NCBI GenBank assembly: GCA_965231775.1
Contig: OZ246888.1
Coordinates: 2,074,947-2,138,946 of the forward strand
Direction of reading: 5' to 3'
From: Candidatus Binatia bacterium
Lineage (GTDB): Bacteria > Desulfobacterota > Binatia > Bin18
DNA length: 64,000 nucleotides
Shown here piece by piece: positions 3,958 through 50,054 of the stretch. A program made the translations under genes and the position numbers. The notes below the pieces were generated by a model. It was not told the DNA's origin and ran no database searches. It saw only the letters and a list, made by a program, of their open reading frames with translations. Each line of letters begins with the position of its first letter. Within the stretch, counting starts at the first letter, position 1.

Positions 3958-4812
3958 GTGACGGAAGTTAGGTGTGAGAAAGGCATTGTTATGACTTCTA
4001 TGCGAAACCTTCGTTGTTTTGTCTTGCTATTGAGCCTTTATCCCGCCGTTGCGTTTCTTATGCTTCTATTAGTTCCACCGCCTCAGGCAAACGCCTTTTG
4101 GGGCTCTCTCTTTAAAAGATCACCCAGTATAATTGAAAAACTGTCCAAAAGCTCAAAGGCATTACCTGATGATGAAATAATCAAGCTCTCCAAACTCTCC
4201 GATGAAGCTAATGGCACAGGTAAACTTGGAAAGGAGCTTGGGAAATTAAATTTACCCAATGATGTGCTTGAAGATACATTTATGCGTATCGCTATTCATC
4301 AAGGAAAAGTTACCAGAAAAGAAGCAGGAGGAATGTTTACCAGATTAGGAAATACGCCTGGATTTCGCTCTACTCTAAGAAAAATAATTGGAAATAATGC
4401 TGCGGTTACAAACGGGCACTTGAATGAGTTAAGAATTGCCGACTCGGCGTCCATGAACAGATTCAAAGTGCTAGAGATAGGGGAAAAGTTTAATGACGGA
4501 CGAAAGAAAGCGCCAACCGATATAGATGTAGTTCTCGAAAGAGGGGGCAAACGCTTCGCTATAGAAGCCAAGGACTATGCACCAACAAAACAAATCCCAC
4601 TGGTTCAATACAGGGCAGATTTGGACACCTTGGTTGAGTACAAAAAAGCACACTCGCAGCAGGTTATTCCCATATTTACCATGACAAATAAACCCGACGG
4701 GCGGCATCTAAAAATCTTAGAGAGTGAAGCTAACAAAAGAGGTGTTGAACTGATTTTTGGAAGGCCCCAAGTATTGGTAGAACAAATGAAGATTCTAGCA
4801 GAAATCCCGTGA
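3958..4812 (+). CDS. Secreted hypothetical protein with a possible PD-(D/E)xK-like motif, in a lower-GC cassette.
   Basis: N-terminal signal peptide (LLLSLYPAVAFLMLLLVPPPQANA-FW). The segment PTDIDVVLERGGKRFAIEAKDY resembles a D...ExK nuclease core. Local GC is clearly below the window average. The true start may be the internal Met at 3991. Confidence 0.6.
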   Translation: MTEVRCEKGIVMTSMRNLRCFVLLLSLYPAVAFLMLLLVPPPQANAFWGSLFKRSPSIIEKLSKSSKALPDDEIIKLSKLSDEANGTGKLGKELGKLNLPNDVLEDTFMRIAIHQGKVTRKEAGGMFTRLGNTPGFRSTLRKIIGNNAAVTNGHLNELRIADSASMNRFKVLEIGEKFNDGRKKAPTDIDVVLERGGKRFAIEAKDYAPTKQIPLVQYRADLDTLVEYKKAHSQQVIPIFTMTNKPDGRHLKILESEANKRGVELIFGRPQVLVEQMKILAEIP

Positions 4813-6272
4813 AACCTTACCTGTTATTACTGCTGTTAATTTGCCTGTATCCAGATTTGACTTATGCAGCCGGGGCTACTTTTGAGTCTTTTTACAAAGA
4901 ACCTTGGCCTACCACTTGGATTCTTGCCGGCGCAGCTCTAACTGCGGCTATAGCTACAGCTCTAATAATTTCTACAGGAGGTGCAGCAGCGGCAGCAACT
5001 CCTGCTGTGAAGGCTATTGGCACATGGATTGGCGGTAAAATGGGGCTGTCAGGTGGTGCGGCGCTTAAGGCGGGTCTTGCTTTGCTTGGTGGGGGTGCAA
5101 AAGCCAGTGGCGGTCTTGGCATGGCAGGTGGGACAACACTACTCTTTGCTTCACTAAATTTCGGAACTGATATGGGAATTGGTTATACGCTTGAAAGGGC
5201 GATGAGCGAGTACAGCTACAACAATCTTGCAGAACAAAGTAAGGGGCTACCGACCCTCCCGCTGCCGGTGAATGGCTCTGGACCTGATACTTATGAAGCT
5301 GCCATAGAAATATTAGATGATGTCAATAAAGAGTTGCCTCTGTCTGCTAACAGCAACCAACAGCTAATAGGGCAGGCTATAAGCAGAATAGAAAAAGCAA
5401 ACAAGGAGTCTCGGTCCTGGAATGAGGATGAAAAAATAAAGAACCGGTCCTTATTGTCGTTACTCTATTTTATTTCAAACGATTATGACAAGGCAAAAGA
5501 TCATGCTGACATAGCAATGAGGTACGCGAGAACTTCAGAGATCAAAAAACCCCTTCCGGCATTTATCTACGCAACCAGTTCCTTATATGAGAGAGAATTT
5601 GATTTTTCCCATATCACTAATGACTATTTCAGCTACTCAGTATTAGCAGAACCCGATAACCCGCTCATTCCACTCCTGTTTTCAATATATTTAGACAGGA
5701 TGTTGCTACGCTTTAATGACGACTTTTTGAATGAGACGGCGCTATATCAAATATTTACAATCATGGAATCACCCGCGCTTAAAGAATTGCGGGTGCAGAA
5801 CTACACAATCTTACTTTCAAGATATTTTGTGCGTCTGAAACTAGAGCAACAAAAGATAATGGCTCTGGCGAGCACCTCAAGCAGTACGATCAAAAATAGC
5901 CCGAAAACTTTGCAAGTCGTCAATGATTCACTTGATAGCTATGAGGCACTCCTAAGTGACGCAGGGGATGTCACGATAAGTATGTTAACTCTGGATTTAA
6001 ACGATAATGAGAGCATACAAAGGGCTGAAATTCGCAATTTATTGCGGGACTATAGGAGGGATGCAAAAAGACTTGCTTCCCTCGTCGATGATTTTAGAAC
6101 ACGAGTGGTGAAGACTAGATCATCAGCGACGGAGACTGGAACATCAGCGACGGAGACTGGAACATCAGCGACGGAGACTAGATCATCAACGAGGGAGGGG
6201 GTTGCCGTGGGTGTCGGGCTGGCTATCTTGGCGCTCCTTGGGGTGTTTGCCTGGAGAATCATAAGGCCGTGA
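4809..6272 (+). CDS. Hypothetical membrane/secreted protein with a Gly/Ala-rich segment, a C-terminal TM anchor and a SATETGT x3 repeat.
   Basis: Start overlaps the upstream stop (ATGA). Contains a signal-like N-terminus, a Gly/Ala-rich stretch, the repeat TRSSATETGTSATETGTSATETRSS, and a C-terminal hydrophobic helix (VAVGVGLAILALLGVFAW). Low GC. Confidence 0.6.
   Translation: MKPYLLLLLLICLYPDLTYAAGATFESFYKEPWPTTWILAGAALTAAIATALIISTGGAAAAATPAVKAIGTWIGGKMGLSGGAALKAGLALLGGGAKASGGLGMAGGTTLLFASLNFGTDMGIGYTLERAMSEYSYNNLAEQSKGLPTLPLPVNGSGPDTYEAAIEILDDVNKELPLSANSNQQLIGQAISRIEKANKESRSWNEDEKIKNRSLLSLLYFISNDYDKAKDHADIAMRYARTSEIKKPLPAFIYATSSLYEREFDFSHITNDYFSYSVLAEPDNPLIPLLFSIYLDRMLLRFNDDFLNETALYQIFTIMESPALKELRVQNYTILLSRYFVRLKLEQQKIMALASTSSSTIKNSPKTLQVVNDSLDSYEALLSDAGDVTISMLTLDLNDNESIQRAEIRNLLRDYRRDAKRLASLVDDFRTRVVKTRSSATETGTSATETGTSATETRSSTREGVAVGVGLAILALLGVFAWRIIRP
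6119..6186 (+). repeat. Tandem 21-nt repeat (about 3 copies, catcagcgacggagactggaa) inside the CDS 4809..6272.
   Basis: Copies at 6121-6141, 6142-6162 and a degenerate copy at 6163-6183. They encode SATETGT x3. Confidence 0.8.
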
Positions 6273-6336
6273 AATCATTGCAGGGGGTGCGCATGGGGTC
6301 ATCATCGCTATCCCACAGCACAACAATCCCTCGACC

Positions 6337-6942
6337 CTAATGCCCCATCTGCTCGCGCGCTTTATCAACATAGCGCTGAATCAGCAGGCGCATGGTTTCT
6401 GCGGGCTGGATGCCGATAAGAGGAAACTCGCCGAGCATAAAGGTCGGATAGCCGACCACGCCAAACGTGGCGGCTTCCTGTTCGGTTGCCTGGACCCGTT
6501 GGGTCAATTCGCCGGACCGAAGGGCCTGCTCCAATTCGGCCACGGGTAAACCTACCTGTTCGGCCACGCCGAGCAAAACAGACCGGTCGCCAATATCCTG
6601 CTCTTCCTCAAACGCGGCCACAAAAACCGCTTCGTGATAGGCGGCAAACAGGTTATGGTCTTTGGCGAATTCGGCCGCTTCCAAGGCGTAGGCCGAGTCC
6701 AGCCATTTGGCCGGGATACGTAGCGGGATGCCGGTTTCGCGCGAGATACGCACAATTTTGCCTTTGGCGTCATCTCCGATCACTTCGCCGTTTTTCCAGC
6801 CCTTATGCCGGCGGGCGATGTGGACGCCTTTCCACACCAGCTCGATTGCGAGCTGACCGTCGAGCTGTTCCATGACGCACTTGGCGATATAGCTGAGGGA
6901 AGAGGCATAGTCGTAGTAGACCGGGATTTTGACGTTCGCCAT
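6337..6942 (-). CDS. DsbA/FrnE-like thiol-disulfide oxidoreductase family protein.
   Basis: 201 aa: [20 protein letters not shown]... with a DsbA-like fold signature. Divergent from the UGSC selenoprotein gene. Confidence 0.8.
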
Positions 6943-7038
6943 GAGGATGCACTCTCTTCATTCCTGGTGGTCAAAACTGTACCCGGCGTTCCATTGCACG
7001 GGCAAGAGGGTTGGACTATATAGCGAAGGGCAAGGGAG

Positions 7039-7644
7039 GTGCGTATGGGACAGATTGAAGTCCTGAGTCCGGTTGGAGAAGCGCAAGTCGGTGATCTGCC
7101 GCTTGCCCGACGAGAGGGTAGCCTGCGCGGGAAAACAATCGGCTTTCTGAATAATCGCAAGGCCAACGCCGGCCTGCTGCTCGAACAGGTGGAAGCGCTG
7201 CTGCACGAACGGTGTGGAGATTTTAGGGTTATCCAGGGGGAGAAGAATGCTTCACTCGGTGTACCCCAAGAGGTGAGGGCACGCCTGTCAAGCTGTGACG
7301 TGATTGTCGAAGCCATAGGCGATTGAGGCTCGTGCACGTCGTGGGGTCTCCACGACACCATTGAATTTGAAAAGCAGGGCATTCCGACCGCCATCATTTG
7401 CAGCGACGAGTTTGCACCGCTCGGCCGGGCCGAGTCCCGCACCCTGGGCATGGGCGGTGTGCCCATTGCCGTGATTCCCCATCCCCTGGCCGGCAATACG
7501 CCGCAGGTGGTGCAGGCCAAGGCCGCGGCCGTAGTGGATGAAATTCTGGCCATTTTAACCCAGCCAGCGGAGCAGTTGGCCGACGCGTATCGCGGGCGGT
7601 TTCTCAAGCCCATGGAGAAAAAGATCGAGCGAGTGTCGGCGTAA
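7039..7644 (+). CDS. UGSC-motif selenoprotein with an in-frame TGA (Sec) at 7324-7326.
   Basis: Track ORFs 7039..7326 and 7450..7644 share a frame and are separated only by a TGA. Read-through gives ...CDVIVEAIGD-U-GSCTSWGLHDTIEFEKQGIPTAIICSDEF... A 7-bp hairpin follows 11 nt downstream. RBS GGGAGGTG precedes the ATG at 7039. A fused paralog with the same U-GSCT context is at 44217. Confidence 0.75.
7338..7356 (+). promoter_or_regulatory. Candidate bacterial SECIS hairpin (gtcgtgg-GGTCT-ccacgac).
   Basis: Perfect 7-bp stem with a GGUCU loop, starting 11 nt after the UGA at 7324-7326. Confidence 0.55.
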
Positions 7645-7697
7645 TCAGCCCCCTCACCCCAGCCCTCTCCCCTGAGGGGAGAGGGAGCAAAAGTGTC

Positions 7698-8780
7698 ATG
7701 GATTTCCAATCAGACAAAATCTCCCTGGACGATTCTCTTGAATCCGTCAACGACTGGTTTTACGACCAGGGCTGGACGGATGGGCTGCCCATTATTCCAC
7801 CCACACCCGAGCGGGTAGAAAAGATGCTGGCCTGGACGGACCGTAGCCCCCAAGACGTACTGGGACCGATACCGCCCAAATACGGCATTGCCACCCTGGA
7901 AAAATTAGCCGTGAACGCGGTCATGGCGGGCTGTGTGCCCGAATACTTCCCGGTCATTATTGCCGCAGTCGAGGCACTGCTCGAAGGGCCGTTCAATCTG
8001 TACGGGGTGCAGAGCACAACCCATCCCTGCGCGCCGCTGCTGATTCTGAACGGCCCGATTGCGGCGGAGATCAGTGTCAACTCGCGCTACAACGCCTTTG
8101 GCCAGGGCTGGCGGCCAAACGCCACAATCGGCCGCGCGATTCGCCTAGTTCTGCTGAATGTCGGTGGGGGAACGCCGGGCATGCTGGACCGCTCAACCCA
8201 GGGCCAGCCCGCAAAGTACAGCTATTGCATAGCCGAGAACGAGGAAGAAAATCCCTGGGGTCCGCTACACGTCGAACGCGGCTTTGCGGCCGAGACCAGC
8301 ACGGTCACGGTCTGCGGAGCGGAAGGGCCGCATAATATCAACGACCATATCAGCAGTGCCGCGCCTGGGATTCTGACGACCATAGCCAGCACCATGGCCG
8401 GTATGGGCTCGAATAATGCCTACGCGTTTGGTGAACCGATTCTCGCCCTCGGACCCGAGCATGCCGATATCCTGGCCCGAGACGGCATCTCAAAGGACGA
8501 CATTCGGGCCTATGTCTTCGAGCACGCCCGTGTGCCACGCGAACAGTGGGAGGCGGGCGGCATGATCGGTATGGGGTTTACCCCGGATGACGCCTTTCCC
8601 GACGCTGCCGCCATCCCGCTGATTCGCAAACCGGAACGGCTCATGATTCTCGTCGTCGGCGGTCCGGGTCGCCACTCGTGCTGGATGCCTACGTTCGGGG
8701 CCATGACCCGTTCCGTGACCCGTCAGCTTGCCCTCAAGGACGGCCGGCCGGCGACGTCCATTCAAGAGTTTCGTCGCTAG
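7698..8780 (+). CDS. Conserved protein partnered with UGSC selenoproteins (family not named). A paralog of this domain is fused to the UGSC domain at 44217..45920.
   Basis: 360 aa. The segment WFYDQGWTDGLPIIPPTPERV aligns with ERFSVEGWSDGLPVIPPTQDRV in the fused ORF. The gene lies immediately downstream of the UGSC gene. Confidence 0.7.
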   Translation: MDFQSDKISLDDSLESVNDWFYDQGWTDGLPIIPPTPERVEKMLAWTDRSPQDVLGPIPPKYGIATLEKLAVNAVMAGCVPEYFPVIIAAVEALLEGPFNLYGVQSTTHPCAPLLILNGPIAAEISVNSRYNAFGQGWRPNATIGRAIRLVLLNVGGGTPGMLDRSTQGQPAKYSYCIAENEEENPWGPLHVERGFAAETSTVTVCGAEGPHNINDHISSAAPGILTTIASTMAGMGSNNAYAFGEPILALGPEHADILARDGISKDDIRAYVFEHARVPREQWEAGGMIGMGFTPDDAFPDAAAIPLIRKPERLMILVVGGPGRHSCWMPTFGAMTRSVTRQLALKDGRPATSIQEFRR

Positions 8781-14850: not shown

Positions 14851-16470
14851 ATGCCAAAATATGATGTTCTTATTGTCGGTGGCGGGGTTGCGGGACTCCG
14901 GGCCGCCTTGGCGGCCAAGCAGGCTGGCGTACAGGTTGCCCTGCTCAGCAAGACTCATCCGCTACGCAGCCATTCTGCGACCTCGTCAGACGGATTGAAT
15001 GCAGCCTTTGGAAAAGACGATTCGTGGCAGCAGCACGCCCAGGATACGGTACGGGCCGGAGCGGGCCTGTGCGATCAAGCGGCGGTTGAGGAGATGTGCC
15101 GCGCCGCCTCGGACGACATTATTCAACTCGACCATATCGGGGTGCCGTTCAACCGGAACGCTGAGGGCAAACTCGACCGGTGGGGCCTCGGTGGGCATAC
15201 CCTCCCGCGCACGGCATTTTCTGCCGATATGACCGGTCATGCAGCACTCAACACGCTCCATGAGCAATGTATGCGGGAGGACATTCCCAGCTATGAAGAG
15301 TGGCTCGTGACCTCCCTCGTGGTTGAGGACGGTATCTGTCACGGGGTGCTCGCCCTCGAACTCGGAACGGCCACCCTCGCAGCGTTCAGTGCGTCCGCTG
15401 TCGTGCTGGCCACGGGGGGTGCCGGGCGTGTCTATACCCCGAGCACGGCCTCGCAGTCGTGCTGCGGTGACGGCATGAGTCTGGCCTATCGGGCCGGGCT
15501 GAGCCTCAGGGATATGGAAATGGTGCAATACCACCCCCTAGGCTTTTGCGACCGGGCTGCCTTTGCCTCGGAAGGTGCTCTGGGCGAGGGCGCTGTACTG
15601 TGCAACCTGGACGGACAGCCCATCCTTCAGACCGACGACCTGCCGCTCCGGGACGCGCTGTGTCGCTCGCTCGCTTCCGCTGAGGATGGCGCGGCACTCG
15701 ATTGTCGCTCGATTGGCAAAGAGCGTATTGGCGCCCGATTCCTCTATTTGGAGCGAGCGGCCAATGATATGGCTGGTATCAGTCTGGACAGCGCGCCGCT
15801 GCCTGTCATGCCGCGCATGCATCGTGTCCTGGGTGGCATCCAGACCGATATCAGCGGAGCAACGGCTGTTTCCGGTCTGTTTGCCGCCGGAGAGTGTGCC
15901 TCATCTGGAGTGCACGGGGCCAACGCCCTGGCCGGGAATGCGCTGACCGCCAGCGTTGTCTTTGGTCGGCAGGCCGGCAGCGCCGCTGCCGCCCATGTGT
16001 CGAACACCGCTCCCCAGACGATTGCCGACTCTACCCTGCAGGACGCCCGGCGAACGCTGGAGGCGATTTTTTCCCGGCCTGCGTCTGAGGATACGGTTGT
16101 CACGATTCAGCGCGCACTGGCGAGCGCTATGGCTGAGCACGTTGGACTCGTACGGGACGAGGCCGGGCTGCGGGAGGCCGCCCGCTGTGTCGCCGACTTA
16201 CAGACTCGCTACACTCAGGTTGGGCTCCGACATCACGGCAAGATGTATAACCATGAATTGCTCACTTTTTATGAGTTGGGCGCGCTGCTCGACGTTGCCG
16301 CAGCCATTGTGACTGCGGCCCAGGAACGACAGGAAAGCCGTGGCGTCCACCACCGGAGTGACTTTCCGGCAACAAACGATACGGAGTGGCAGCATCACTC
16401 GCTGGTGAGGCATGGACCCGATGGCCCACACCTGACCACCAGTCCGGTCAATGCCGGGCAGTCGGCGTGA
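14851..16470 (+). CDS. sdhA: Succinate dehydrogenase/fumarate reductase flavoprotein subunit.
   Basis: YDVLIVGGGVAGLRAAL FAD-binding N-terminus and RSHSATSSDGLNA. 539 aa. Confidence 0.9.
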   Translation: MPKYDVLIVGGGVAGLRAALAAKQAGVQVALLSKTHPLRSHSATSSDGLNAAFGKDDSWQQHAQDTVRAGAGLCDQAAVEEMCRAASDDIIQLDHIGVPFNRNAEGKLDRWGLGGHTLPRTAFSADMTGHAALNTLHEQCMREDIPSYEEWLVTSLVVEDGICHGVLALELGTATLAAFSASAVVLATGGAGRVYTPSTASQSCCGDGMSLAYRAGLSLRDMEMVQYHPLGFCDRAAFASEGALGEGAVLCNLDGQPILQTDDLPLRDALCRSLASAEDGAALDCRSIGKERIGARFLYLERAANDMAGISLDSAPLPVMPRMHRVLGGIQTDISGATAVSGLFAAGECASSGVHGANALAGNALTASVVFGRQAGSAAAAHVSNTAPQTIADSTLQDARRTLEAIFSRPASEDTVVTIQRALASAMAEHVGLVRDEAGLREAARCVADLQTRYTQVGLRHHGKMYNHELLTFYELGALLDVAAAIVTAAQERQESRGVHHRSDFPATNDTEWQHHSLVRHGPDGPHLTTSPVNAGQSA

Positions 16471-29057: not shown

Positions 29058-29421
29058 ACACTAGCAAGAAGGCTGGTATGAGAAAAGAAAAGTCGAGGAT
29101 GCCTGGACAATCCTCGGATAAGTATGCTATCAGCACGCCCATGCTATCGCCTTGCCCCGGACGGAAGGCTGGGGAAAGAGCCGCCGGGCGACAAATCCGT
29201 CGACCCAAATAGGCTCTGGGGGGCAAAAAGATAGTTGTGGTAGACCGCTTGGATCCAATTGTTGTACGGACCGAGACGGACGGCAGAAAAGCCATATGAC
29301 AGGGAAGGGCGACAGCGGGCGGCTTTGGCAGCAGCCCGCATGATCCTCAACCCATCTTCCCTGTCCCGACGCCCTCCGGCTGTGGTTCGTGGAGAAGATG
29401 CAGACTGTAAGGAGGGACGCC

Positions 29422-31654: not shown

Positions 31655-32006
31655 GGGGGCGATCTGGTTTCGACGTGGGCTAGAAAGCCAGGGCTGCATG
31701 CCGGGGTTCTGTCCCGCCCGTAAAACGGACAGGCTGCAATTTAACTGCAGACGATTTTGATTACGCTCTTGCTGCCTAGAGCAGCTTGCGTCTTACTGAC
31801 CCGCGCCCGTAGGGTTGGCTAAGGCGACACAAATCGGGATAGGGCTCGCATCGTGCCGAAGGGTGCGCGCCCGAAACTTTACTTTGGCTGGTCTGAGGGC
31901 ATCCTGCTCGTAGGAGGCCCGAGGATGAGATCAAACTACGAGCTACGCATTGTAGATGCCTTGAGTGGACTACTCTCGGACGCGGGTTCGATTCCCGCCG
32001 CCTCCA
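31655..32006 (+). ncRNA. ssrA: Transfer-messenger RNA (tmRNA). Tag reading frame about 31747-31779, giving tag peptide ADDFDYALAA.
   Basis: 5' GGGGGCGATCTGGTTTCGACGTGGG matches the tmRNA 5' acceptor/TLD, with an internal GGCTGCATGCCGGGG. The tag ORF gca gac gat ttt gat tac gct ctt gct gcc tag ends in the typical YALAA. The 3' end is TCGGACGCGGGTTCGATTCCCGCCGCCTCCA (T-arm plus acceptor); CCA is not encoded. Lies immediately downstream of smpB. A possible -10 (ATAATT) is at 31642-31647. Confidence 0.85.
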
Positions 32007-37326: not shown

Positions 37327-38469
37327 CTACAATCCGAGTGTCTGCGCAAATTGGTCGAAACTCCGGCCATGCAGACCCGTGAGGCGATACGCGTCACGGT
37401 ACAGTAGCCGGCCCTCCCGCGCTGCACGAATGACCGCGCTACCGAAGCGACGGCCGACACGTCCCCGTTGCGCGTTGTAGAAATTCCCCCCACTCGATTG
37501 CTGCGCAGATCTTCGCCGTTCGTCAGCCTTGTATCGATCCAGGAATCCGTAGAAATCGTCTCCCGCCATCAACTCTCGATCCAACACTCGCCGGGCCGCT
37601 ACGAGGGGGCTGACCTTGAAGCGCCTCGCCAGCGCTTGAAACGGTTCGGCCGACTCGGCCACGCTCGGCCAGCAGCCATCAAGCTCGTCTCCCGGAATCA
37701 GTACTTCCGCCGCAACCTCGTTACAAAATCTTTCAACATCATCGTCGTAGGGCTGGAGGTTCACCAAGTTGAACACACCGCCTGTCCCCAACCACAGGTG
37801 GGCCAGTTCGTGCGCCAGGGTAAACATCTGAGCAGACGTGAAGTCCGCTCCGTTGATGAAGATTAAAGGCGCGTAATCGTCGCAGAGCACAAATCCCCGA
37901 AATTCCTCCGGGTCCAGTTTCTGTCGCGTATTGTTCTCCACGACGCCGTTGACGACGACCAAAACACCTATCTCTTCCACCGCCTGCCGAAGCCCAACGA
38001 GCGCGGCGGACCATGTAGGGTGCGTGCTCGCCCAGCCATCATCGACACCGAGTGTCCTTCGGATATTGTTGGCCGCGTCCACGCGACTCGAAGCCAACGT
38101 GACAGTCCCGACGAAGGCAAGAGGTTCTTCGCCTACCTCGATAAGATATTCGCGCATCCACTCTTGCCGCCGCTGCATTTGCCGCACAGTGGTTATCAGT
38201 GCCGCGCTCGGCCGCGCCGGCTGCTGGCCTTTGAGGGTGCGAAAATCAGCAACCGGTAATTTCTCATCCGGCGGCTCCTCTAAAAGCAAGGCTCCGAAGG
38301 GTGTGAGCGTCGCCTTTGCAAACCGCTCCAATTGCTTAAACGTCGGCTGCGCCTCACCGCCTTCCCACTGTGGCAGCTTCGGGAAGCGCTTCGCCAAGTC
38401 AGACATGTCCTTTCCCGAGCGCTCGCGCGCCCAGCGAACCACTGCGGGGTTCACCGCGACCTTGTTCAT
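37327..38469 (-). CDS. HTH (XRE-like) + ImmA/IrrE family metallopeptidase (DUF955).
   Basis: HELAHLWLG is the HExxH zinc peptidase motif, and the N-terminus is HTH-like. The start is chosen at MNKVAVNP; the track begins at 38511. Confidence 0.75.
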   Translation of the reverse strand: MNKVAVNPAVVRWARERSGKDMSDLAKRFPKLPQWEGGEAQPTFKQLERFAKATLTPFGALLLEEPPDEKLPVADFRTLKGQQPARPSAALITTVRQMQRRQEWMREYLIEVGEEPLAFVGTVTLASSRVDAANNIRRTLGVDDGWASTHPTWSAALVGLRQAVEEIGVLVVVNGVVENNTRQKLDPEEFRGFVLCDDYAPLIFINGADFTSAQMFTLAHELAHLWLGTGGVFNLVNLQPYDDDVERFCNEVAAEVLIPGDELDGCWPSVAESAEPFQALARRFKVSPLVAARRVLDRELMAGDDFYGFLDRYKADERRRSAQQSSGGNFYNAQRGRVGRRFGSAVIRAAREGRLLYRDAYRLTGLHGRSFDQFAQTLGL

Positions 38470-38517
38470 ATTGATAACACAGCACCCTGACCGGCTACGG
38501 TCAATCTTCAAAGTCGT

Positions 38518-39903
38518 CTATCGCTCAGCATATGCCGCGTCAATCAGAGCTTTAGCCTTATCAAACTGCTTTGGTTCGGCTTCCCCATCCGGCAACCGTA
38601 CAGCTGCCTCGCGCACGTCGAGCTTGCCGGTGACGACATCGGCGATCAGGCGGGTGCGGTATTCGTGGAGGATAGCTTGCTCTTTGCGGCAATTACCTAT
38701 CGCTATGGCGATCTTGCTCTGTTCCTCATCCAGGACCGCAGCGATTCGGTCCTGTTCGGACACTGGTGGAACCGCGATCAAGAGGGCCTTGATGTCCGCG
38801 ACGTTAATTCGATTGAACGTTGAACCGACAAGGAGCAATGCAAGTTGATCTGACATGACCTTGCTGTGCAGGAAGTAGTTTAGCCATCGCTGGTTCTCGG
38901 AAGAGGACCTGATGAGACATACATCTTGTCCCATCGCGAAACGATCCTCTGTCGTGACAAGGGCAGCGGCCCCAACGCTTACGTTGCGGCAATAGATCAG
39001 GTCTCCAGGCCGAGGCTCCCTTCCTCCTTCGATCAGCTTCTCATACCATTCGGGAGTGGTACGGTTTGATGCTTTGAAGTTTAGCTCGAAGGACTGTGCT
39101 TCCCGTACGCTGGCCAAGGGAATACCACCATCGACGAAAGGCACTGTAAGGTGCTTGCAGTCGATAACCTGCCATTTCCTCCGGAGTGCAACCACCTCCC
39201 AATGCTCCGGCACCTCCCCCAGCCACTCCACGCCGGAGGGCTTGTAGACCGGGTAGGGCTGGCCGGTGCGGATGTCGATCTGGCCGGTGACGGCTTGGTG
39301 GATGAGGGCCTGCTTCTGCTCTTCCAGCAGCGCAATCAGCTTCTCCTTGGCGTGGATGTAGCACCGGATGCGCCGGTCGGCGTGGTCGAGGAAGCGGGCG
39401 ATGGCGGTTTGTTCGGAGAGGGGCGGGACACCCAGCTCTATATTCCTAACCTGCTTTGATGAGAGATGTTTGACGGTCGTAGAGTGTGCAAGGTCCCCAA
39501 TGATCTTTAATGGTAGTTCAACAGCGCGGACAATAAACCCTGCGCGGGAGGAATTTTTCGCTCGGAGACAACACATCCTCTGATTTAGCAAGGCGGCCGG
39601 TCCCCGCCATCGCGCAACGTTGAACAATCCGTCCATCCCCACGATGATATCACCCGTTTCAATCAGAGCCTCTTCAACGATGGCACCACCGTAATTCACC
39701 TCTGTCTTGATAGCGTGCAAATCGCGAATCCGAATAAGCGGTGTTCCTTCTCCCTTCACAAAGTACTGCGAGTCAAAGGGATAGCCGTTGACTACTGTGG
39801 CAATGCTGGACAAACGAGACACCTCCCAATGTGCCGGCACCTCTCCCAGCCACGGCACACCGGAATCCTTGTAGGCAGGGTAGGGTTTCAGTTCGGCGGC
39901 CAT
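38518..39903 (-). CDS. hsdS: Type I restriction-modification specificity subunit (two target-recognition domains).
   Basis: Duplicated architecture with a repeated WLGEVPxHWEV...L and the central and C-terminal conserved helices of HsdS. 461 aa. Confidence 0.85.
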   Translation of the reverse strand: MAAELKPYPAYKDSGVPWLGEVPAHWEVSRLSSIATVVNGYPFDSQYFVKGEGTPLIRIRDLHAIKTEVNYGGAIVEEALIETGDIIVGMDGLFNVARWRGPAALLNQRMCCLRAKNSSRAGFIVRAVELPLKIIGDLAHSTTVKHLSSKQVRNIELGVPPLSEQTAIARFLDHADRRIRCYIHAKEKLIALLEEQKQALIHQAVTGQIDIRTGQPYPVYKPSGVEWLGEVPEHWEVVALRRKWQVIDCKHLTVPFVDGGIPLASVREAQSFELNFKASNRTTPEWYEKLIEGGREPRPGDLIYCRNVSVGAAALVTTEDRFAMGQDVCLIRSSSENQRWLNYFLHSKVMSDQLALLLVGSTFNRINVADIKALLIAVPPVSEQDRIAAVLDEEQSKIAIAIGNCRKEQAILHEYRTRLIADVVTGKLDVREAAVRLPDGEAEPKQFDKAKALIDAAYAER

Positions 39904-39906
39904 TTG

Positions 39907-39960
39907 TCAGTCAAAAAGCGTTTTCGCGACCTCGTTGCCCGAGAGGTCACGGAGCAGCTT
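39907..39960 (-). pseudogene. Possible truncated hicA-like toxin remnant (17 codons, MKLLRDLSGNEVAKTLFD*) overlapping the hsdS start.
   Basis: Short ORF immediately 3' of the hicB-like gene. Its N-terminus resembles the HicA/YcfA start, but it ends in a stop just where hsdS begins. Confidence 0.2.
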
Positions 39961-40172
39961 CATACCGCGATGGCCTCTTCCTTGATGAGATGGAGCCTGA
40001 TGGCTCTTGGTGCGGTGTCTTCGTCGAAATGGCAGAGGACCGCGTCCTTCACCATGTCTTTCAGGTCGTCCCAATCATCGCCCTGGGTGAAAATACTGTA
40101 CCCAAGCGCTCGGGCGTCGTACCCGCCTTCAACTGCCTCCGTGACCTCGAAAATGATCTCGGTCGGTCTCAT
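39960..40172 (-). CDS. hicB: HicB-like (UPF0150) antitoxin.
   Basis: MRPTEIIFEVTEAVEGGYDARALGYSIFTQGDDWDDLKDMVKDAV fits the UPF0150/HicB N-terminal domain. The track ORF starts at 40193. Confidence 0.55.
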   Translation of the reverse strand: MRPTEIIFEVTEAVEGGYDARALGYSIFTQGDDWDDLKDMVKDAVLCHFDEDTAPRAIRLHLIKEEAIAV

Positions 40173-40235
40173 CGAATAATCCTCCGTGTGCATCTCTGCA
40201 CGCGTCGCCCCTCCGATTGGCGTCGGCGCGCATGT

Positions 40236-42221: not shown

Positions 42222-42374
42222 CTTTTTGCGTATCCCTGAGGGGCCTGTAGCGGATATCACACGGAACGCAGGACACAACACTCCGGGCGTGTACCGAAGG
42301 GCAGAGGCGAGGCAGGGGCCTACGGAACAGAGGAGAGCCTTACGGATCGCGGGGCAGGCGTCAATCCCTGCTCT

Positions 42375-42540
42375 TATGTGGGTGTCGGCGAACCCACTCA
42401 TGCCGATGCCATCCTCGACCGGTTGGTGCACAACGCCTATCGCATCGAGCTGAGGGGCGAATCGATGCGAAAAATCAACGCCGGGAGAGGTAGACGACTC
42501 AAGGCCAAGGTTTTACTGTACGAAGGCTATGAGGGAGAAT
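42375..42540 (+). mobile_element. IS21-family istB C-terminal remnant (pseudogene fragment).
   Basis: Frame translation ...[43 protein letters not shown]...* matches the conserved IstB C-terminus (AILDRL..H....I.L.GeSyR). No N-terminal ATPase part or istA is present. Confidence 0.55.
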
Positions 42541-42544
42541 CATA

Positions 42545-44083
42545 ATGAGTTCCGATAAAACCGGCGGCTCCGTAGGCGCGCCGACAGACAGCGAACTGCG
42601 CGCGGCCGCGCAGGCTTTATTTCTCGATCTGGATCGGGGCGACGTGGATTTCTTCGCAACCGCGATGGGCAAGTTCGTCGACGACTACAATGCCATCGAC
42701 GCCATGGACGCGCCGACCCTGCCGACGAAATATCCGCGCGGTGAGGGTTATCGCCCGACCGGCGATGAGAACCGTTACGGTGCCTGGCAGTGGAAGTGTT
42801 CGATCAAGGGCGCGGCGTCCGGCAAGCTCGTCGGCAAACGCGTCGCCATCAAGGACAACATCAGCGTTGCGGGCATGCCTATGCTGAACGGCTCGGCGCT
42901 GTATGAAGGCTTTATCGCCGACGAAGATGCGACCGTCGTGACCCGCGTGCTCGATGCCGGCGGCGAAGTGGTCGGCAAGGCCGTGTGCGAAAACTTCTGC
43001 TATTCCGGCGGCAGCCATACGTCGGCTTCGGGTCCGGTGAGGAACCCGCGCGACCCCGACTTCATGACCGGCGGCTCGTCGAGCGGCTGTGCCGCATTGA
43101 TTCTGACGGGTGAATGCGACATGGCGATCGGCAGCGACCAGGGCGGCTCCGTACGCATGCCGAGCTCGTGGTCTGGCTGCGTCGGGATCAAGCCGACTCA
43201 CGGCCTCGTGCCCTATACCGGCGCCGGACCCATCGAGCACACTATCGATCACCTCGGGCCGATGGCTGCCTCGAGCGTCGATTGCGCCCTGTTACTCGAG
43301 GTAATCGCGGGCTACGACGATGGCCTCGACCCGCGCCAGGTGGCGGCATTGCCGGCAAAACCCTATAGCGAACTCGTCGGCCGGGGGATTGAGGGGCTGC
43401 GGATCGGTATCGTTCGCGAAGGCTTCGGCGCGCCGGGCTCGGAAGCGGACGTGGATGAATCCGTGCTGGCCGCGGCCCGGCGGCTGCAGGAAGCCGGTGC
43501 CGTGGTCGCAGAAATCTCCATCCCCATGCACACCGAGGCATTGAAGATCATGTTCGCAGGTTCTGTCGACGGGACGCTGTCAACGTGGAGCGATCAGGGT
43601 CCGGCGGGCGGAAACGCAGATGGCCACCACCCACTCGGAGCGATCCGCTTCTTTCAGGAGGCGCGCAAAACCCGGGCGGCGGAACTGCCGGACATGGCCA
43701 AGACCGTGCTGTTGTTCGCGCAGGTCATGCGCGCACGGTACGGCAACTATTATTCCGCCAAGGCCCAAAACCTCGTCCGCACGCTCCGTGCCGCCTACGA
43801 TCTCGCGTTTGATAAATGCGACCTGCTGGTGATGCCGACGACCGTGATGAAAGCACACCGGATCCCACCACCGGACGCATCCCGTGAAGTCGTCATGGGG
43901 CTCACGCTCGACATGATCGGCAACACCGCGCCCTTCGATGCGACGAGCCATCCGTCGATGAGCGTGCCGACTGGTCTGTCGAACGGCCTGCCCGTCGGCA
44001 TGATGATCACAGGACGCTACGGTGAGGACGATGTCGTGCTGCGCGCCGGGCATGCGTTCGAGACGTTGCGTGGACCGTTTTGA
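42545..44083 (+). CDS. Amidase-signature family amidase.
   Basis: GGSSSGCAALI (GGSS[SG]G) and KDNISVAGMP. RBS GAGGGAG precedes the start. 512 aa. Confidence 0.85.
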   Translation: MSSDKTGGSVGAPTDSELRAAAQALFLDLDRGDVDFFATAMGKFVDDYNAIDAMDAPTLPTKYPRGEGYRPTGDENRYGAWQWKCSIKGAASGKLVGKRVAIKDNISVAGMPMLNGSALYEGFIADEDATVVTRVLDAGGEVVGKAVCENFCYSGGSHTSASGPVRNPRDPDFMTGGSSSGCAALILTGECDMAIGSDQGGSVRMPSSWSGCVGIKPTHGLVPYTGAGPIEHTIDHLGPMAASSVDCALLLEVIAGYDDGLDPRQVAALPAKPYSELVGRGIEGLRIGIVREGFGAPGSEADVDESVLAAARRLQEAGAVVAEISIPMHTEALKIMFAGSVDGTLSTWSDQGPAGGNADGHHPLGAIRFFQEARKTRAAELPDMAKTVLLFAQVMRARYGNYYSAKAQNLVRTLRAAYDLAFDKCDLLVMPTTVMKAHRIPPPDASREVVMGLTLDMIGNTAPFDATSHPSMSVPTGLSNGLPVGMMITGRYGEDDVVLRAGHAFETLRGPF

Positions 44084-44216: not shown

Positions 44217-45920
44217 ATGAGTTCACATAGCGAAATTCACTACGAGGTCGTCTGGCCGAAATCGCCGCTAGCGGTACAGACACGGCATCCCGCCGAGCGG
44301 CTCGATACGCTCGAGGGCAAACGAGTCGGGTTCCTGTGGGATTTCCTGTTTCGCGGTCACGAGCTTTTTCCGGTCATAGAAAAAGAGCTGCAGAACCGTT
44401 TCACCGGGATCGAAATCGTCGGGTACGACGAATTCGGCAACACGCACGGGGGCGATGAAGCCGCGGTGATTGCGGCCCTTCCTAACCGGTTGCGTGACCG
44501 CCGTATCGACGCCGTCGTCTCCGGGGTGGGATGTTGAGGGAGTTGTACGCCCGCCGTGATGCGGGCGTCGGTTGTCGCGGAAGCCGCCGGGGTGCCGTCG
44601 GTGTCGCTGGTCTGTGAAGGTTTCGAACGCCAGGCGTCGGCCACCGGTCGCGGCGCGGGATTCGACGGACTTCCCCTCGGCGTGCTGCGCGGGCACGTGG
44701 ACGCTCAGAGCCACGACGAGATGATCGGCTACCTGCGTGACTCGACACTTGACCAGATCATAGCCGGTCTCACCAGCGCACCGGTCGTCAGTGAGGGCGC
44801 TGCCGCCGAGCCCGCGCCACTGGATGTCGTTGCCACGGGAACGATTGACGATATCAACGAACGTTTCAGCGTTGAGGGGTGGAGCGACGGCCTGCCGGTC
44901 ATTCCGCCGACCCAGGACCGGGTCGCGGCGTTTCTCGCCGCGCTGAACGATAACCCCTGGAGAGTAATCGGCACCGCCCGGCCCTCGGGCCGCGATATCT
45001 CGGTCTGGTCGGTTGCCGTCAATGCCGTCATGACCGGTTGTCAGCCTCGGCACCTGCCCGTGCTCTTGGCGCTCGCCGAAATCATTGCCGATCCCGGTTA
45101 CGGCGTCGAGCACTCGGGCAACACCACCGGGGCCGACGCCCTCGTCATCGTGAATGGGCCGTCGATGGCCGAACTCGGCTTCAACGCCCGGCAGGGGGTA
45201 CTTCGGGAGGGCGCCCACGCGAATACCAGCGTCGCCCGATGGCTCCGGCTGTACCTGCGCAATGTCTGTGGATTCACCGCCGATGAACACGACAAGGCCA
45301 CGTTCGGTAACAGCACCCGGGTGGTATTGGCCGAAGATGAGCAGACGCTGACCGACATCGGCTGGCAACCACTGAGTGCGGAGTTCGGGTTCGGGCGGGG
45401 CGACGACGTGGTCACCATGGCCCGCATGAACAGTGGCCTCATCCTTGGCAGCGTCTTCGGATCGACAGGCGATGCGATTGTGCCGTATCTGGCCGACGGC
45501 CTCGTTCGAGTCAGTGGCTGGGACCTCGCGCACATCTACGGGTTCGGACAGGGCCATTATCGACCGCTGCTGATCCTTTCCCCGATACTGGCGCGCACAT
45601 TCGCCCGATCCGGCTGGAGTAAGGATGACGTCAAGCAGGCGCTGTTCATGAAGGCACGGCTGCCGGCGGCCAGGTTCGAGCAGCTCATCGGCGAGTGGAG
45701 CAACATCGATGCGGGGCGCCGACCCCTGTTCGAACTGGCGACCGAAGGTCTGGTCCCGCCGGTCTTCGGCGAGTCCAACGATCCGCAACGCCTCGTGCCG
45801 ATCGTGACCGAGGCCTCGAAGTTTCTGATCGCCGTTGCAGGCGACCCGAACCGGAACAATGCCTACGTAATGAGTAACGATGGCCCGCACGGTGACTGGA
45901 CGGCCAAGGCCGTACCATGA
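44217..45920 (+). CDS. Fused UGSC-motif selenoprotein domain plus partner domain, with an in-frame TGA (Sec) at 44535-44537.
   Basis: Track ORFs 44217..44537 and 44556..45920 share a frame and are separated by a TGA. Read-through gives ...AVVSGVGC-U-GSCTPAVMRASVVAEAAG...ERFSVEGWSDGLPVIPPTQDRV... An 8-bp hairpin follows 9 nt downstream. The stop overlaps the transporter start. Confidence 0.7.
44547..44568 (+). promoter_or_regulatory. Candidate SECIS hairpin (acgcccgc-CGTGAT-gcgggcgt).
   Basis: Perfect 8-bp stem with a GU-containing loop, 9 nt after the UGA. Confidence 0.5.
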
Positions 45921-47686
45921 ACCCCTACGCCTTCGGCATCATCACGAGCATCGTGATCTACCTGTTGATCGGAAATTACGCCGGCCGGCGGGTAAAAGAT
46001 GTCGATGATTATTTCGTTGCGGGGCGTGACAGCTCGACCTTGCTGATAGCCGGCACCCTGGTCGCGAGCTACCTGAGCACCGCCGCGTTCCTGGGTGAAA
46101 CCGGGTTTACGTATCAAGGGCACGGCGCGATCCTCATGATCCTGGTCGGGGTCAATATCGTCGGCTACGTACTGGGCGCGGCGTTCTTCGGCCGCTATGT
46201 CAGACGCAGCCAGGCGATAACAGTTGCCGAGTTCTTCGGCAAGCGTTTTAACAGTCGGCGCGTTCAGGCCGCCGCGGGCGTGACGGTTATCGGGGGTGTC
46301 ACCGCCTATTTGCTGGCGGTGACCCAGGGGGCATCACTTGCGATATCGGAAGTGATGCATATTCCCTATGACGTGACTTTGCTGATCGTCTGGATCGGTT
46401 ACACCTCGTTCACCATATATTCCGGCTCGAAAGGCGTGGTGTTGACGGATACCGTCATGTACCTGCTGTTCACCTTCGTCGGTGTCCTCTCTCTCTACTA
46501 CATCCTTGGTGAGACCGGGGGATGGTTCGCCACCATCGAGTCCTTGGCGGTATACGAAGCCAAGCCGGACATCATCTCTTGGCACGGTGTCGTCGGATCC
46601 GATTCGCGCTGGCAAACCTCGTTCGATTCAGTTGGCTGGGGTCTCGTGCTCGGGATCGCGTGGGCATTCACGATTGCGGTGAGCCCGTGGCAATCGAGCC
46701 GCTACCTCATGGCGAAAAACGAGCACACCGTGATTCGATCGGCCTGCTTCGCGAGCGCGTCGGTCGTGGTGCTGTATTGGGCGTTGGTGGTGTCCGCCGC
46801 CGCCGTCAATCTCCTCAACCCGGATATCGAGCCCAACGAAAGGGCAATGATCTGGGCGGCTTTCAGCGCCATGCCGACCTATGCGGGCGTGTTGTTCATG
46901 ACCGGCGTGGTGGCTGCCGCCCTGTCCTCGGCGTCGACATTTCTCTCCTTGATTGGATTCAGCGCGACGAACGATCTGGTCGAGATTCGTGAGGGCGATG
47001 AACGTCGCAAGCTCCGGTTGAGCCGCTACACCATGCTGGCGACCGGGATCGTCATCTTGATCGTGGCGTATTTCCAACCGCCCGCGATCATGATGATCAG
47101 CTATTTTGCGGCGACGCTGTTTTCATCGTCGTGGGGACCGGTGGCCTTCATGAGCGTGTGGAGTAAACGCATCACGGCAGACGGGGCTTTTTGGGGGATC
47201 GTCGTCGGCTTCGTTGGGAACCTGATACCGAAGATCCTCTCGGTATTCGAGGTGATATACTTGCCGGTTTATCTCGATCCATTCGTGATTGGCATCGTAT
47301 TGAGCCTCATCACGATAATTCTTGTATCGCGAAATAGCCGGGTCACCGAGGAGGAATATCTTTATCGTATGCAGGTCCATCAAACGCCGCCCACCGAATA
47401 TGATCCCTCACTGACTGCCAAAACCTTGTGGTTCGCGAAAGGTTTAATGGTCTGCGGCGCGGCCCTGACGATACTCATGATCGTGTTTTACGTGTTGCCG
47501 TACGAGCATGCGGTCGGGCACAAGGCCGGACTACCTGTGTCTGGCCCGGTGGTTCTTGTCATGAGCGGCGAGCTGATTCTCTCGATAGGGTACGGCGGTA
47601 TCCTCTTCCTGTGCGGTGCGTTCGCCTACTGGTGGACTAAGCGCTCCTACGGCGAACGTCACGAGGGGCCGGATCAACATTCGTAG
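45917..47686 (+). CDS. Sodium:solute symporter family transporter.
   Basis: 589 aa, multi-TM, with the SSF-typical N-terminus (DYFVAGR...). ATGA overlap with the upstream gene. Confidence 0.85.
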   Translation: MNPYAFGIITSIVIYLLIGNYAGRRVKDVDDYFVAGRDSSTLLIAGTLVASYLSTAAFLGETGFTYQGHGAILMILVGVNIVGYVLGAAFFGRYVRRSQAITVAEFFGKRFNSRRVQAAAGVTVIGGVTAYLLAVTQGASLAISEVMHIPYDVTLLIVWIGYTSFTIYSGSKGVVLTDTVMYLLFTFVGVLSLYYILGETGGWFATIESLAVYEAKPDIISWHGVVGSDSRWQTSFDSVGWGLVLGIAWAFTIAVSPWQSSRYLMAKNEHTVIRSACFASASVVVLYWALVVSAAAVNLLNPDIEPNERAMIWAAFSAMPTYAGVLFMTGVVAAALSSASTFLSLIGFSATNDLVEIREGDERRKLRLSRYTMLATGIVILIVAYFQPPAIMMISYFAATLFSSSWGPVAFMSVWSKRITADGAFWGIVVGFVGNLIPKILSVFEVIYLPVYLDPFVIGIVLSLITIILVSRNSRVTEEEYLYRMQVHQTPPTEYDPSLTAKTLWFAKGLMVCGAALTILMIVFYVLPYEHAVGHKAGLPVSGPVVLVMSGELILSIGYGGILFLCGAFAYWWTKRSYGERHEGPDQHS

Positions 47687-50028: not shown

Positions 50029-50054
50029 GGTTACTCCTCCTGAGTGAGTCTCGG

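Follow-up and report, generated by a model that had tools for sequence, protein, structure and literature searches.

A UGSC-family selenoprotein gene of Candidatus Binatia and its pairing with an uncharacterised partner gene

The genome of a Candidatus Binatia bacterium (assembly GCA_965231775.1) harbors, within the 64,000-nucleotide (nt) stretch of contig OZ246888.1 analysed here (positions 2,074,947 to 2,138,946 of the forward strand; hereafter the window), a gene, termed gene 1, which had been predicted from its sequence to encode a selenoprotein and to be split into two open reading frames (ORFs) by an in-frame UGA codon. Our analyses leave little room for doubt that gene 1 is a genuine selenoprotein gene in which the UGA at position 7324 is decoded as selenocysteine (Sec), and they identify its product as a further member of the known UGSC family, which has been catalogued since 2007-2008. 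The best overall explanation, in which we place good confidence, combines this assignment with a role for the gene 1 product as the redox subunit of an enzyme whose remaining part is encoded by the gene directly downstream (the partner).

The UGSC-containing protein was introduced in 2007 as a selenoprotein with function unknown (PMC1976440). It was described as likely thioredoxin (Trx)-like, some members being joined to a conserved domain called Unknown_1 (PMC2398784), and a 2026 review still places it among the uncharacterised selenoproteins with a Trx-like fold (PMC13188914).

Decoding of the UGA codon of gene 1

From the GTG at 7039 or the ATG at 7045 through to position 7644, the frame of gene 1 is interrupted solely by the TGA at 7324-7326, and its read-through translation runs VIVEAIGD-U-GSCTSWGLHDTIEFEKQGIPTAIICSDEFAPLGRAE around the Sec residue (EAIGD-U-GSCTSW in its immediate context), with VEAIGD-U-GSCTSWGLHDTIEFEK as the Sec-spanning peptide. 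The single frame and the D-U-G-S-C motif of the original prediction were both found directly in the sequence, while the predicted length of 201 amino acids was not upheld: translation probably begins at ATG 7045 rather than at GTG 7039, as judged from the GGGAGG at 7034-7039 and from orthologs which begin MGQIE or MGFIE at the equivalent methionine, and the product then comprises 199 amino acids. The apparent second ORF begins at 7450 merely because this is the first ATG in a frame which is open and highly conserved from 7327 onwards. No start codon is present among the 41 highly conserved codons from 7327 to 7449, and the block most conserved across the entire family (ICSDEFAPLGRAE) falls within this stretch, past the TGA and ahead of any new start codon. 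The division of gene 1 into two ORFs is an annotation-style artefact.

With U read as C, the gene 1 product scored 140.6 bits against the NCBIfam model NF041046 ("UGSC family (seleno)protein"; cut-off 125) and 165.7 bits against Pfam PF24696 (cut-off 25), such that the family named in the original prediction exists and includes gene 1. Compared with the family as defined by these models and by Zhang & Gladyshev (2007/2008), gene 1 presents nothing essentially different and is new only as a member from Candidatus Binatia. A homolog search covering 5.8 billion proteins returned five full-length homologs (P0001-P0005) in which D-C-G-S-C-T-S-W spans the TGA position, together with two N-terminal fragments which stop exactly at AIGD and seven C-terminal fragments which start just past it; in the contig DNA of such homologs, the Sec codon is TGA in L001-L003 and TGC in L004. 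Full-length Cys proteins mixed with fragments cut at the UGA are what a Sec/Cys family typically yields when its Sec forms are mis-called. Homologs, therefore, align across the TGA with either Cys or Sec, and similarity continues beyond position 7326 rather than ending there.

A scan of one genome per species added 80 loci. The closest relatives of gene 1 were found in metagenome-assembled genomes of Candidatus Binatia (96% protein identity), and tblastn matches in 38 Binatia loci run through the TGA and take in residues 1-199. Across all loci, the Sec codon is TGA in 67 and TGC or TGT in 18, counts which do not represent a fair Sec:Cys ratio because one of the two scan patterns contained Cys. 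Sec forms were found in Binatia, Gammaproteobacteria, Acidimicrobiales, Nitrospinota and Methylomirabilota, and Cys forms in some Binatia, sphingomonads, Dehalococcoidia, haloarchaea and Archaeoglobi. Cultured carriers include Natrinema, Natronorubrum and Sphingobium wenxiniae for the Cys form and Hyphomonas neptunium for the Sec form (PMC1976440). The motif D-[U/C]-G-S-C-T-S-W is invariant in the family alignment (A2). Between gene 1 and eight Binatia orthologs, the ratio of nonsynonymous to synonymous substitution rates (dN/dS) of the codons following the TGA is 0.05-0.21, which is as low as or lower than that of the N-terminal part (0.10-0.16 in the five pairs for which it was computable). 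Such low values beyond the TGA, coupled with the lack of a start codon before 7450, exclude a real stop codon, a pseudogene and two separate genes.

The selenocysteine insertion sequence (SECIS) is an mRNA element which is bound by SelB in order to deliver Sec-tRNA; the G-U of its apical loop is the SelB contact in the Escherichia coli fdhF and Moorella elements, and the minimal fdhF element needs a spacing of 11 nt. On sequence criteria, the gene 1 hairpin matches a bacterial SECIS in form and placement: as originally predicted, a perfect 7-bp stem (7338-7344 paired with 7350-7356) encloses the loop GGUCU (7345-7349) and starts exactly 11 nt after the UGA. The loop is the same as the fdhF apical sequence. 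For three of the 2033 TGA trinucleotides on both strands of the window, a perfect hairpin with 7 bp or more starts 8-14 nt downstream, and two of these three, exactly those at 7324 and 44535, carry G-U at loop positions 2-3. The combination of TGA, hairpin and G-U loop is far beyond chance, in agreement with the original judgement that a chance stop codon was very unlikely; the second site belongs to gene 2, which is considered below.

The decisive SECIS signal, as read from the aligned loci, is Sec-form-specific conservation at synonymous sites, not covariation. Stem cells are paired in 98.8% of cases in the Sec forms and in 82.1% in the Cys forms, and the loop reads NGUNU in each of the 35 distinct Sec forms of an alignment which runs from the UGA to position +45, with G-U at the corresponding positions in 2 of 12 distinct Cys forms. 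In 32 distinct Sec forms, codon 5 is TCG in 31, while codon 7 (NGT), codon 8 (NTC) and codon 10 (GAC) are conserved in all 32, and codon 9 is CAC or CAT, either of which pairs with G. In the same sequences, codons 1-3, immediately 5' of the stem, vary freely. The 12 distinct Cys forms have drifted (TCG in 5/12, NGT in 2/12, with AGC-CTG, TAC and GAT also occurring). The hairpin, whose lack of conservation in orthologous loci would have told against the original prediction, is accordingly kept in the Sec-form orthologs and has decayed in the Cys-form ones. The UGSC-family hairpins resemble the fdhF-type SECIS in their distance from the UGA (11 nt in gene 1, 9 nt in gene 2) and in the G-U which all Sec-form sequences examined carry at loop positions 2-3. 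They differ in that the stem is short (7-8 bp) and lacks a bulged U, and in that the gene 1 hairpin sequence is family-specific and embedded in the codons of T-S-W-x-x-H-D.

Several observations weigh against the decoding of this UGA. The aligned stems show conservation and a single G-C to G-U change but no compensatory changes; as the two arms of the stem encode T-S-W and H-D, pairing is partly forced by the protein sequence; the gene 1 and gene 2 hairpins show no unusual stability when compared with shuffled controls (z = -0.4 to -0.8); and neither hairpin has a match in Rfam. Furthermore, selA, selB, selD and tRNA-Sec were not detected in the 64-kb window: 16 scanned ORFs gave no match to the corresponding families, no tRNA gene was found, and signature motifs were absent. 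The last of these points would also suit a reading in which the TGA really ends the gene, marks a pseudogene lesion or stems from an error in sequencing or assembly, with 7039-7326 and 7450-7644 being separate or the gene being dead, as would the 70 pairs of ORFs, each with at least 60 codons on either side, which are joined by an in-frame TGA by chance in this GC-rich window. However, neither a stop nor a lesion fits an identical TGA in the 67 loci of many phyla with Cys in the 18 others, the purifying selection which persists past the codon, the position of the most conserved block between the TGA and the next start codon, the restriction of hairpin conservation to Sec forms, or the recurrence of the same features in a second gene of the window. 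This reading is effectively refuted, and we accord it next to no probability. A genome-wide reassignment of UGA was likewise rejected, given that TGA terminates other genes of the window (for example, that at 14851-16470) and that homologs have Cys at the Sec codon.

Gene 2 and the partner protein family

The window contains a second UGSC-type gene, gene 2, at 44217, for which the U-GSCT context (GVGC-U-GSCTPA) and separate hairpin that had been predicted were both found. Its UGSC domain is divergent, with a C-U-G-S-C motif, 25% identity to gene 1 and a score on NF041046 of 48.9 bits, below the cut-off of 125; P0135, a post-UGA homolog which is 96% identical to gene 2, carries PF24696. The C-terminal ~350 amino acids of gene 2 are homologous to the product of the ORF downstream of gene 1, at 7698-8780 (30% identity, E = 4e-40), and gene 2 is, therefore, a UGSC-partner fusion. 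It corresponds to the UGSC/Unknown_1 fusion type of 2008, in which Unknown_1 may be the partner domain. All of the top 120 database homologs of gene 2 (P0135-P0254) lack the part preceding the UGA. At the DNA level, four other distinct fusion loci have kept the TGA (five when gene 2 is counted), and the core of the hairpin (GCCCGC/GCGGGC within an 8-bp stem at 44547-44554 and 44561-44568) and its loop CGUG(A/U)U are kept in L086, L087, L089 and L093.

Within the fusion subfamily (44532-44546 in gene 2; L086-L093), a Cys directly precedes the Sec (G-C-U-G-S-C), giving three adjacent redox-active residues, where the stand-alone subfamily has D-U-G-S-C. A candidate third UGSC gene on the minus strand, at the "*GSC" of 29347-29349 (GKMG*GSCGLL), overlaps a plus-strand ORF and was dismissed as a chance occurrence, tblastn with both UGSC genes finding no similarity there.

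The amidase gene, gene 2 and the symporter gene (Table 1) appear to form an operon, in which the symporter is translationally coupled. Two CaiB-type coenzyme A (CoA)-transferases are located just past this operon on the opposite strand (48787-51296). A divergent regulator of the AsnC/Lrp family lies directly 5' of the fusion gene in four of five distinct fusion contexts (L085, L086, L087 and L093; at ~6125-6600 on the minus strand), and in L089 a RidA gene overlaps the 3' end of the fusion gene. These AsnC/Lrp and RidA neighbors hint that the effector or substrate is related to amino acids or imines.

A partner homolog is located directly 3' of the UGSC gene in nearly every locus sampled, in bacteria and archaea alike and including the archaeal Cys forms. 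Sequence and profile searches matched the partner to nothing in Pfam, NCBIfam or the PDB sequences, and the source names listed for it are all "hypothetical protein" or "uncharacterized". Searched against 1.84 billion representatives, a partner profile matched 7706 clusters (50% identity) at E <= 1e-3 and 2297 at E <= 1e-30. Residues D28, T36, R39, N73, T107, T108, N118, N141, R146, R149, D164, T167, E180, W187, E193, R278 and R325 are invariant in the family and look, from their conservation, like an active site; Cys79, of the motif NAVMAGC, is present in at least 90% of members. No third neighbor was conserved in a census which took in the 88 closest flanking ORFs of diverse loci, where DSBA-like proteins formed the commonest family (6/88) and the remainder were scattered catabolic enzymes.

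Among the 150 best partner representatives, 74 are stand-alone, 40 combine a post-UGA UGSC fragment with the partner, 19 combine full-length UGSC with the partner, 6 are tandem partner-partner proteins, 7 carry a C-terminal extension and 4 have other architectures. Four of the seven extensions (P0257, P0261, P0329 and P0352) are UGSC N-halves which end in GD, representing a reverse-order fusion cut at the Sec UGA, and fusions consequently occur in both orders, UGSC-partner (gene 2 and P0262) and partner-UGSC. In P0310, the partner is fused to a complete thioredoxin reductase (TrxR), which matches TIGR01292 over profile positions 2-300 of 300 (E = 3.6e-99), at 331.4 bits against a cut-off of 343.45, and which also matches AhpF models. 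On the P0310 contigs (L094 and L095), a split Sec-form UGSC gene with the hairpin GUCGUGG-AGUUG-CCACGAC abuts the partner-TrxR fusion upstream. P0399, from the class of other architectures, consists of a UGSC C-half, the partner and a tail resembling the catalytic subunit of ferredoxin:thioredoxin reductase (FTR; 7pwe_A, 2.7e-12). Three more partner representatives contain a small A-C-x-[ED]-C domain whose resemblance to NifU is only suggestive (E = 0.47).

Fold, ancestry and proposed function of the UGSC protein

Structures were modelled with AlphaFold 2 (AF2) for the Cys-form homolog P0001 and for the exact post-UGA part of gene 2. The P0001 model (mean predicted local distance difference test score, pLDDT, of 86.6) places a strand-CxxC-helix unit in a parallel alpha/beta sandwich: strand 86-92 leads into C94-G-S-C97, which opens helix 95-110, such that the C/U-x-x-C motif sits at a helix N-terminus. 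In this model, the UGSC domain is predicted to be flavodoxin-like and lacks a thioredoxin fold, which differs from the likely Trx-like fold of the UGSC literature. A UGSC profile found no match among PDB sequences. Of eight UGSC proteins, seven match the GrdB model TIGR01917 over the Sec region (best E 4.5e-07, for residues 77-170 of P0004 against profile positions 331-420), with weaker matches to TIGR01918, GrdF, GrdH and PrdB. These matches make the UGSC protein a probable distant relative of the Sec module found in Stickland "protein B" subunits, not a member of that family.

We regard it as reasonably probable that the UGSC protein is the redox subunit of the partner enzyme. As a small flavodoxin-like domain with a U-x-x-C redox pair at a helix N-terminus, it would act as the selenol/thiol redox subunit, and the ~350-amino-acid partner (7698-8780 in the case of gene 1) would provide the catalytic or substrate-binding part. 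Electrons would probably reach the U-x-x-C pair from a disulfide reductase of the TrxR or FTR type and would then be handed to the partner, which would reduce a small substrate; such a redox relay is suggested by the fusion of the partner to TrxR and to an FTR-like domain. The census found no conserved third gene from which to infer the substrate itself; the variable catabolic gene contexts (amidase, hydantoinase, CoA-transferase, acyl-CoA enzymes, solute symporter and AsnC regulators, with aminotransferase, luciferase-like monooxygenases, RidA and divergent AsnC regulators elsewhere) point to an organic acid, amide or amino-acid-like compound as its class. In its most extended form, which we advance tentatively and at somewhat less than even probability, the proposal is that UGSC and its partner are the halves of a widespread bacterial and archaeal two-component selenol/thiol reductase, whose catalytic fold would be without a solved relative, whose Sec subunit would share ancestry with selenoprotein B and whose donors would be of the TrxR or FTR type.

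A number of findings count against the functional part of this explanation. The structural conclusions rest on AF2 models, that of the UGSC protein having been built from a shallow alignment of 18 rows, and the GrdB-type scores of 16.4-29.1 bits lie far below the cut-offs of 602 (TIGR01917) and 65 (TIGR01918). The TrxR and FTR fusions amount to one representative each among the 150 best matches, and TrxR was not a common neighbor in the census. In addition, the partner-UGSC(Sec) fusion P0329 has Gly in place of the conserved partner Cys79, and the UGSC-partner fusion P0260 contains a UGSC-like domain without either redox residue (EIGGSL for D[U/C]GSC), so that a simple Cys-Sec exchange is not universal.

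Selenoprotein B systems provide a close comparison and also the basis for a different mechanism. GrdB, GrdF, GrdH and PrdB (TIGR01917, TIGR01918 and TIGR04483) resemble UGSC over ~90 residues centred on the Sec of U-x-x-C; in both cases a Sec-bearing subunit is accompanied by a larger second subunit, and TrxR, which also supplies electrons in the glycine reductase system, is linked to UGSC through the P0310 fusion. In D-proline reductase, D-proline is bound to the pyruvoyl group of PrdA and is attacked at its alpha-carbon by the PrdB Sec, and a U151C variant of PrdB is inactive (PMC11229817). By analogy, the UGSC selenolate may attack a substrate activated by the partner and bring about reductive C-N or C-X cleavage, with the Cys of U-x-x-C then resolving a selenoether or selenenylsulfide. 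The precise coincidence of the GrdB, GrdF, GrdH and PrdB matches with the Sec region, a size near that of PrdB, the obligatory pairing with a second, larger subunit and contexts rich in amidase, hydantoinase, Amidohydro_2, CN_hydrolase, RidA, aminotransferases and AsnC regulators would all be in keeping with such chemistry. We nevertheless consider it rather unlikely. The partner has no sequence or structural similarity to PrdA, GrdE or anything solved, and its interpretation as a pyruvoyl proprotein of the PrdA/GrdE kind, self-cleaving at the conserved G-C, was considered and dropped for want of any similarity whatever. Moreover, no gene resembling those for PrdA, GrdE, GrdA, GrdC, GrdD or PrdH was found near UGSC in the neighborhoods examined, the hosts are largely non-fermenting bacteria and haloarchaea, many of them aerobes, rather than Stickland fermenters, and the GrdB similarity covers ~90 residues at scores far under the cut-offs.

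We assign a still lower probability, and regard as improbable, a free-standing role in which UGSC would be a general thioredoxin-type thiol-disulfide oxidoreductase or antioxidant. The U-x-x-C motif at a helix N-terminus would suit such a role, as would the listing of UGSC among redox proteins of Trx-like fold (Zhang & Gladyshev 2008, PMC2398784; 2026 review, PMC13188914), and it would make the adjacency to the downstream ORF, a feature of nearly every locus sampled, mechanistically meaningless. The two-part redox enzyme which we favor may be compared, as a functional analogy, with AhpF/AhpC and with TrxR/Trx-dependent reductases, in which electrons pass from a pyridine-nucleotide disulfide reductase through a small C/U-x-x-C carrier to a terminal enzyme and the components are sometimes fused; it differs from them in that the UGSC carrier would not have a thioredoxin fold and the partner belongs to no described family.

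Further features of the window and significance

The features discussed above are listed in Table 1 together with their immediate neighbors.

Table 1. Coordinates of gene 1, gene 2, their predicted elements and neighboring genes in the window
Feature	Position	Strand	Evidence or remarks
DsbA-like gene, divergent from gene 1	6337..6942	-	PF01323 2e-25; SSLS replaces CPWC
Shine-Dalgarno-like GGGAGG	7034..7039	+	Read from sequence; 5 nt 5' of ATG 7045; overlaps GTG 7039
Gene 1, UGSC-family selenoprotein, 199 aa including Sec94	7045..7644	+	TAA stop at 7642-7644; NF041046 and PF24696 scores
UGA read as Sec94, motif D-U-G-S-C-T-S-W	7324..7326	+	TGA/Cys alternation among related loci
SECIS-type hairpin of gene 1, stem GUCGUGG/CCACGAC, loop GGUCU	7338..7356	+	11 nt past UGA; Sec-form conservation
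Partner gene, 360 aa, uncharacterised enzyme-like protein	7698..8780	+	Motifs GWTDGLPIIPPT, NAVMAGC, invariant TT, R..R, D, E, W
Amidase gene, 5' of gene 2	42545..44083	+	NF005565 3e-197 (PRK07235-type); 133-nt gap to gene 2
Gene 2, 567-aa fusion selenoprotein	44217..45920	+	Divergent UGSC domain ~44217-44810; partner domain ~44841-45869
UGA read as Sec107, motif G-C-U-G-S-C-T-P-A	44535..44537	+	TGA kept in other fusion loci
SECIS-type hairpin of gene 2, stem ACGCCCGC/GCGGGCGU, loop CGUGAU	44547..44568	+	9 nt past UGA
Sodium/solute symporter gene	45917..47686	+	TIGR00813 sss 2.3e-34; ATG 45917 overlaps gene 2 stop at 45918-45920

The DsbA-like gene upstream of gene 1 occurs in the same arrangement in L001 and L002 and represents a clade-specific accessory outside the conserved core. 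Its product is probably not a disulfide oxidoreductase, because S-S-L-S occupies the position at which DsbA and FrnE have C-P-W-C, and it may be closer to 2-hydroxychromene-2-carboxylate (HCCA) isomerase or kappa-class glutathione S-transferase. The 53-nt spacer between gene 1 and the partner gene (7645-7697) contains a perfect 10-bp palindrome at 7663-7685, CCCTCTCCCC-TGA-GGGGAGAGGG (dG ~-22 kcal/mol), which is not followed by a T-run and is conserved in the closest Binatia loci. Among Binatia, the UGSC-partner spacer ranges from 0 to 441 nt, the longer ones being extremely structured (dG -117 and -223). The palindrome looks like an intergenic element of the repetitive extragenic palindromic (REP) or miniature inverted-repeat transposable element (MITE) kind, or like a hairpin involved in mRNA processing or stability.

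Elsewhere in the window, a 487-amino-acid ORF at 4809-6272 (+) is located in the sole low-GC stretch (0.50 versus 0.57-0.62) and may have been horizontally acquired; its product matches no NCBIfam family, is hydrophobic at the N-terminus, contains segments rich in Gly and Ala, and ends in an ATETGTS repeat and then a hydrophobic tail. A transfer-messenger RNA (tmRNA) gene at 31655-32006 (+), specifying the tag peptide ADDFDYALAA, is the sole ARAGORN match in the window, in which no tRNA genes were detected. A type I restriction-modification module (37327-42431, -) lies directly upstream of the amidase-gene 2 operon and comprises an HsdM-like methyltransferase (40236-42431), an HsdS-like specificity subunit (38518-39903) and a 394-amino-acid ORF without a family.

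The selenoprotein call itself is routine, and its practical lesson is that ORF-based annotation splits or truncates UGSC genes. The finding documents the use of selenocysteine in Candidatus Binatia, no paper which links Binatia with selenocysteine having been found in the library searched. What is new here, all of it computational, is the near-universal pairing or fusion with the partner, the flavodoxin-like model with a GrdB/PrdB-like Sec region and the fusions to TrxR and FTR. The new lead is, accordingly, the orphan partner family, together with a redox-relay hypothesis for a protein family whose function is still listed as unknown. If UGSC and its partner do form the widespread two-component reductase proposed above, a selenoprotein family which ranks among the most abundant in aquatic settings, and which has gone without an explanation since 2007, would acquire a defined enzymatic partner and a biochemical role open to direct test.

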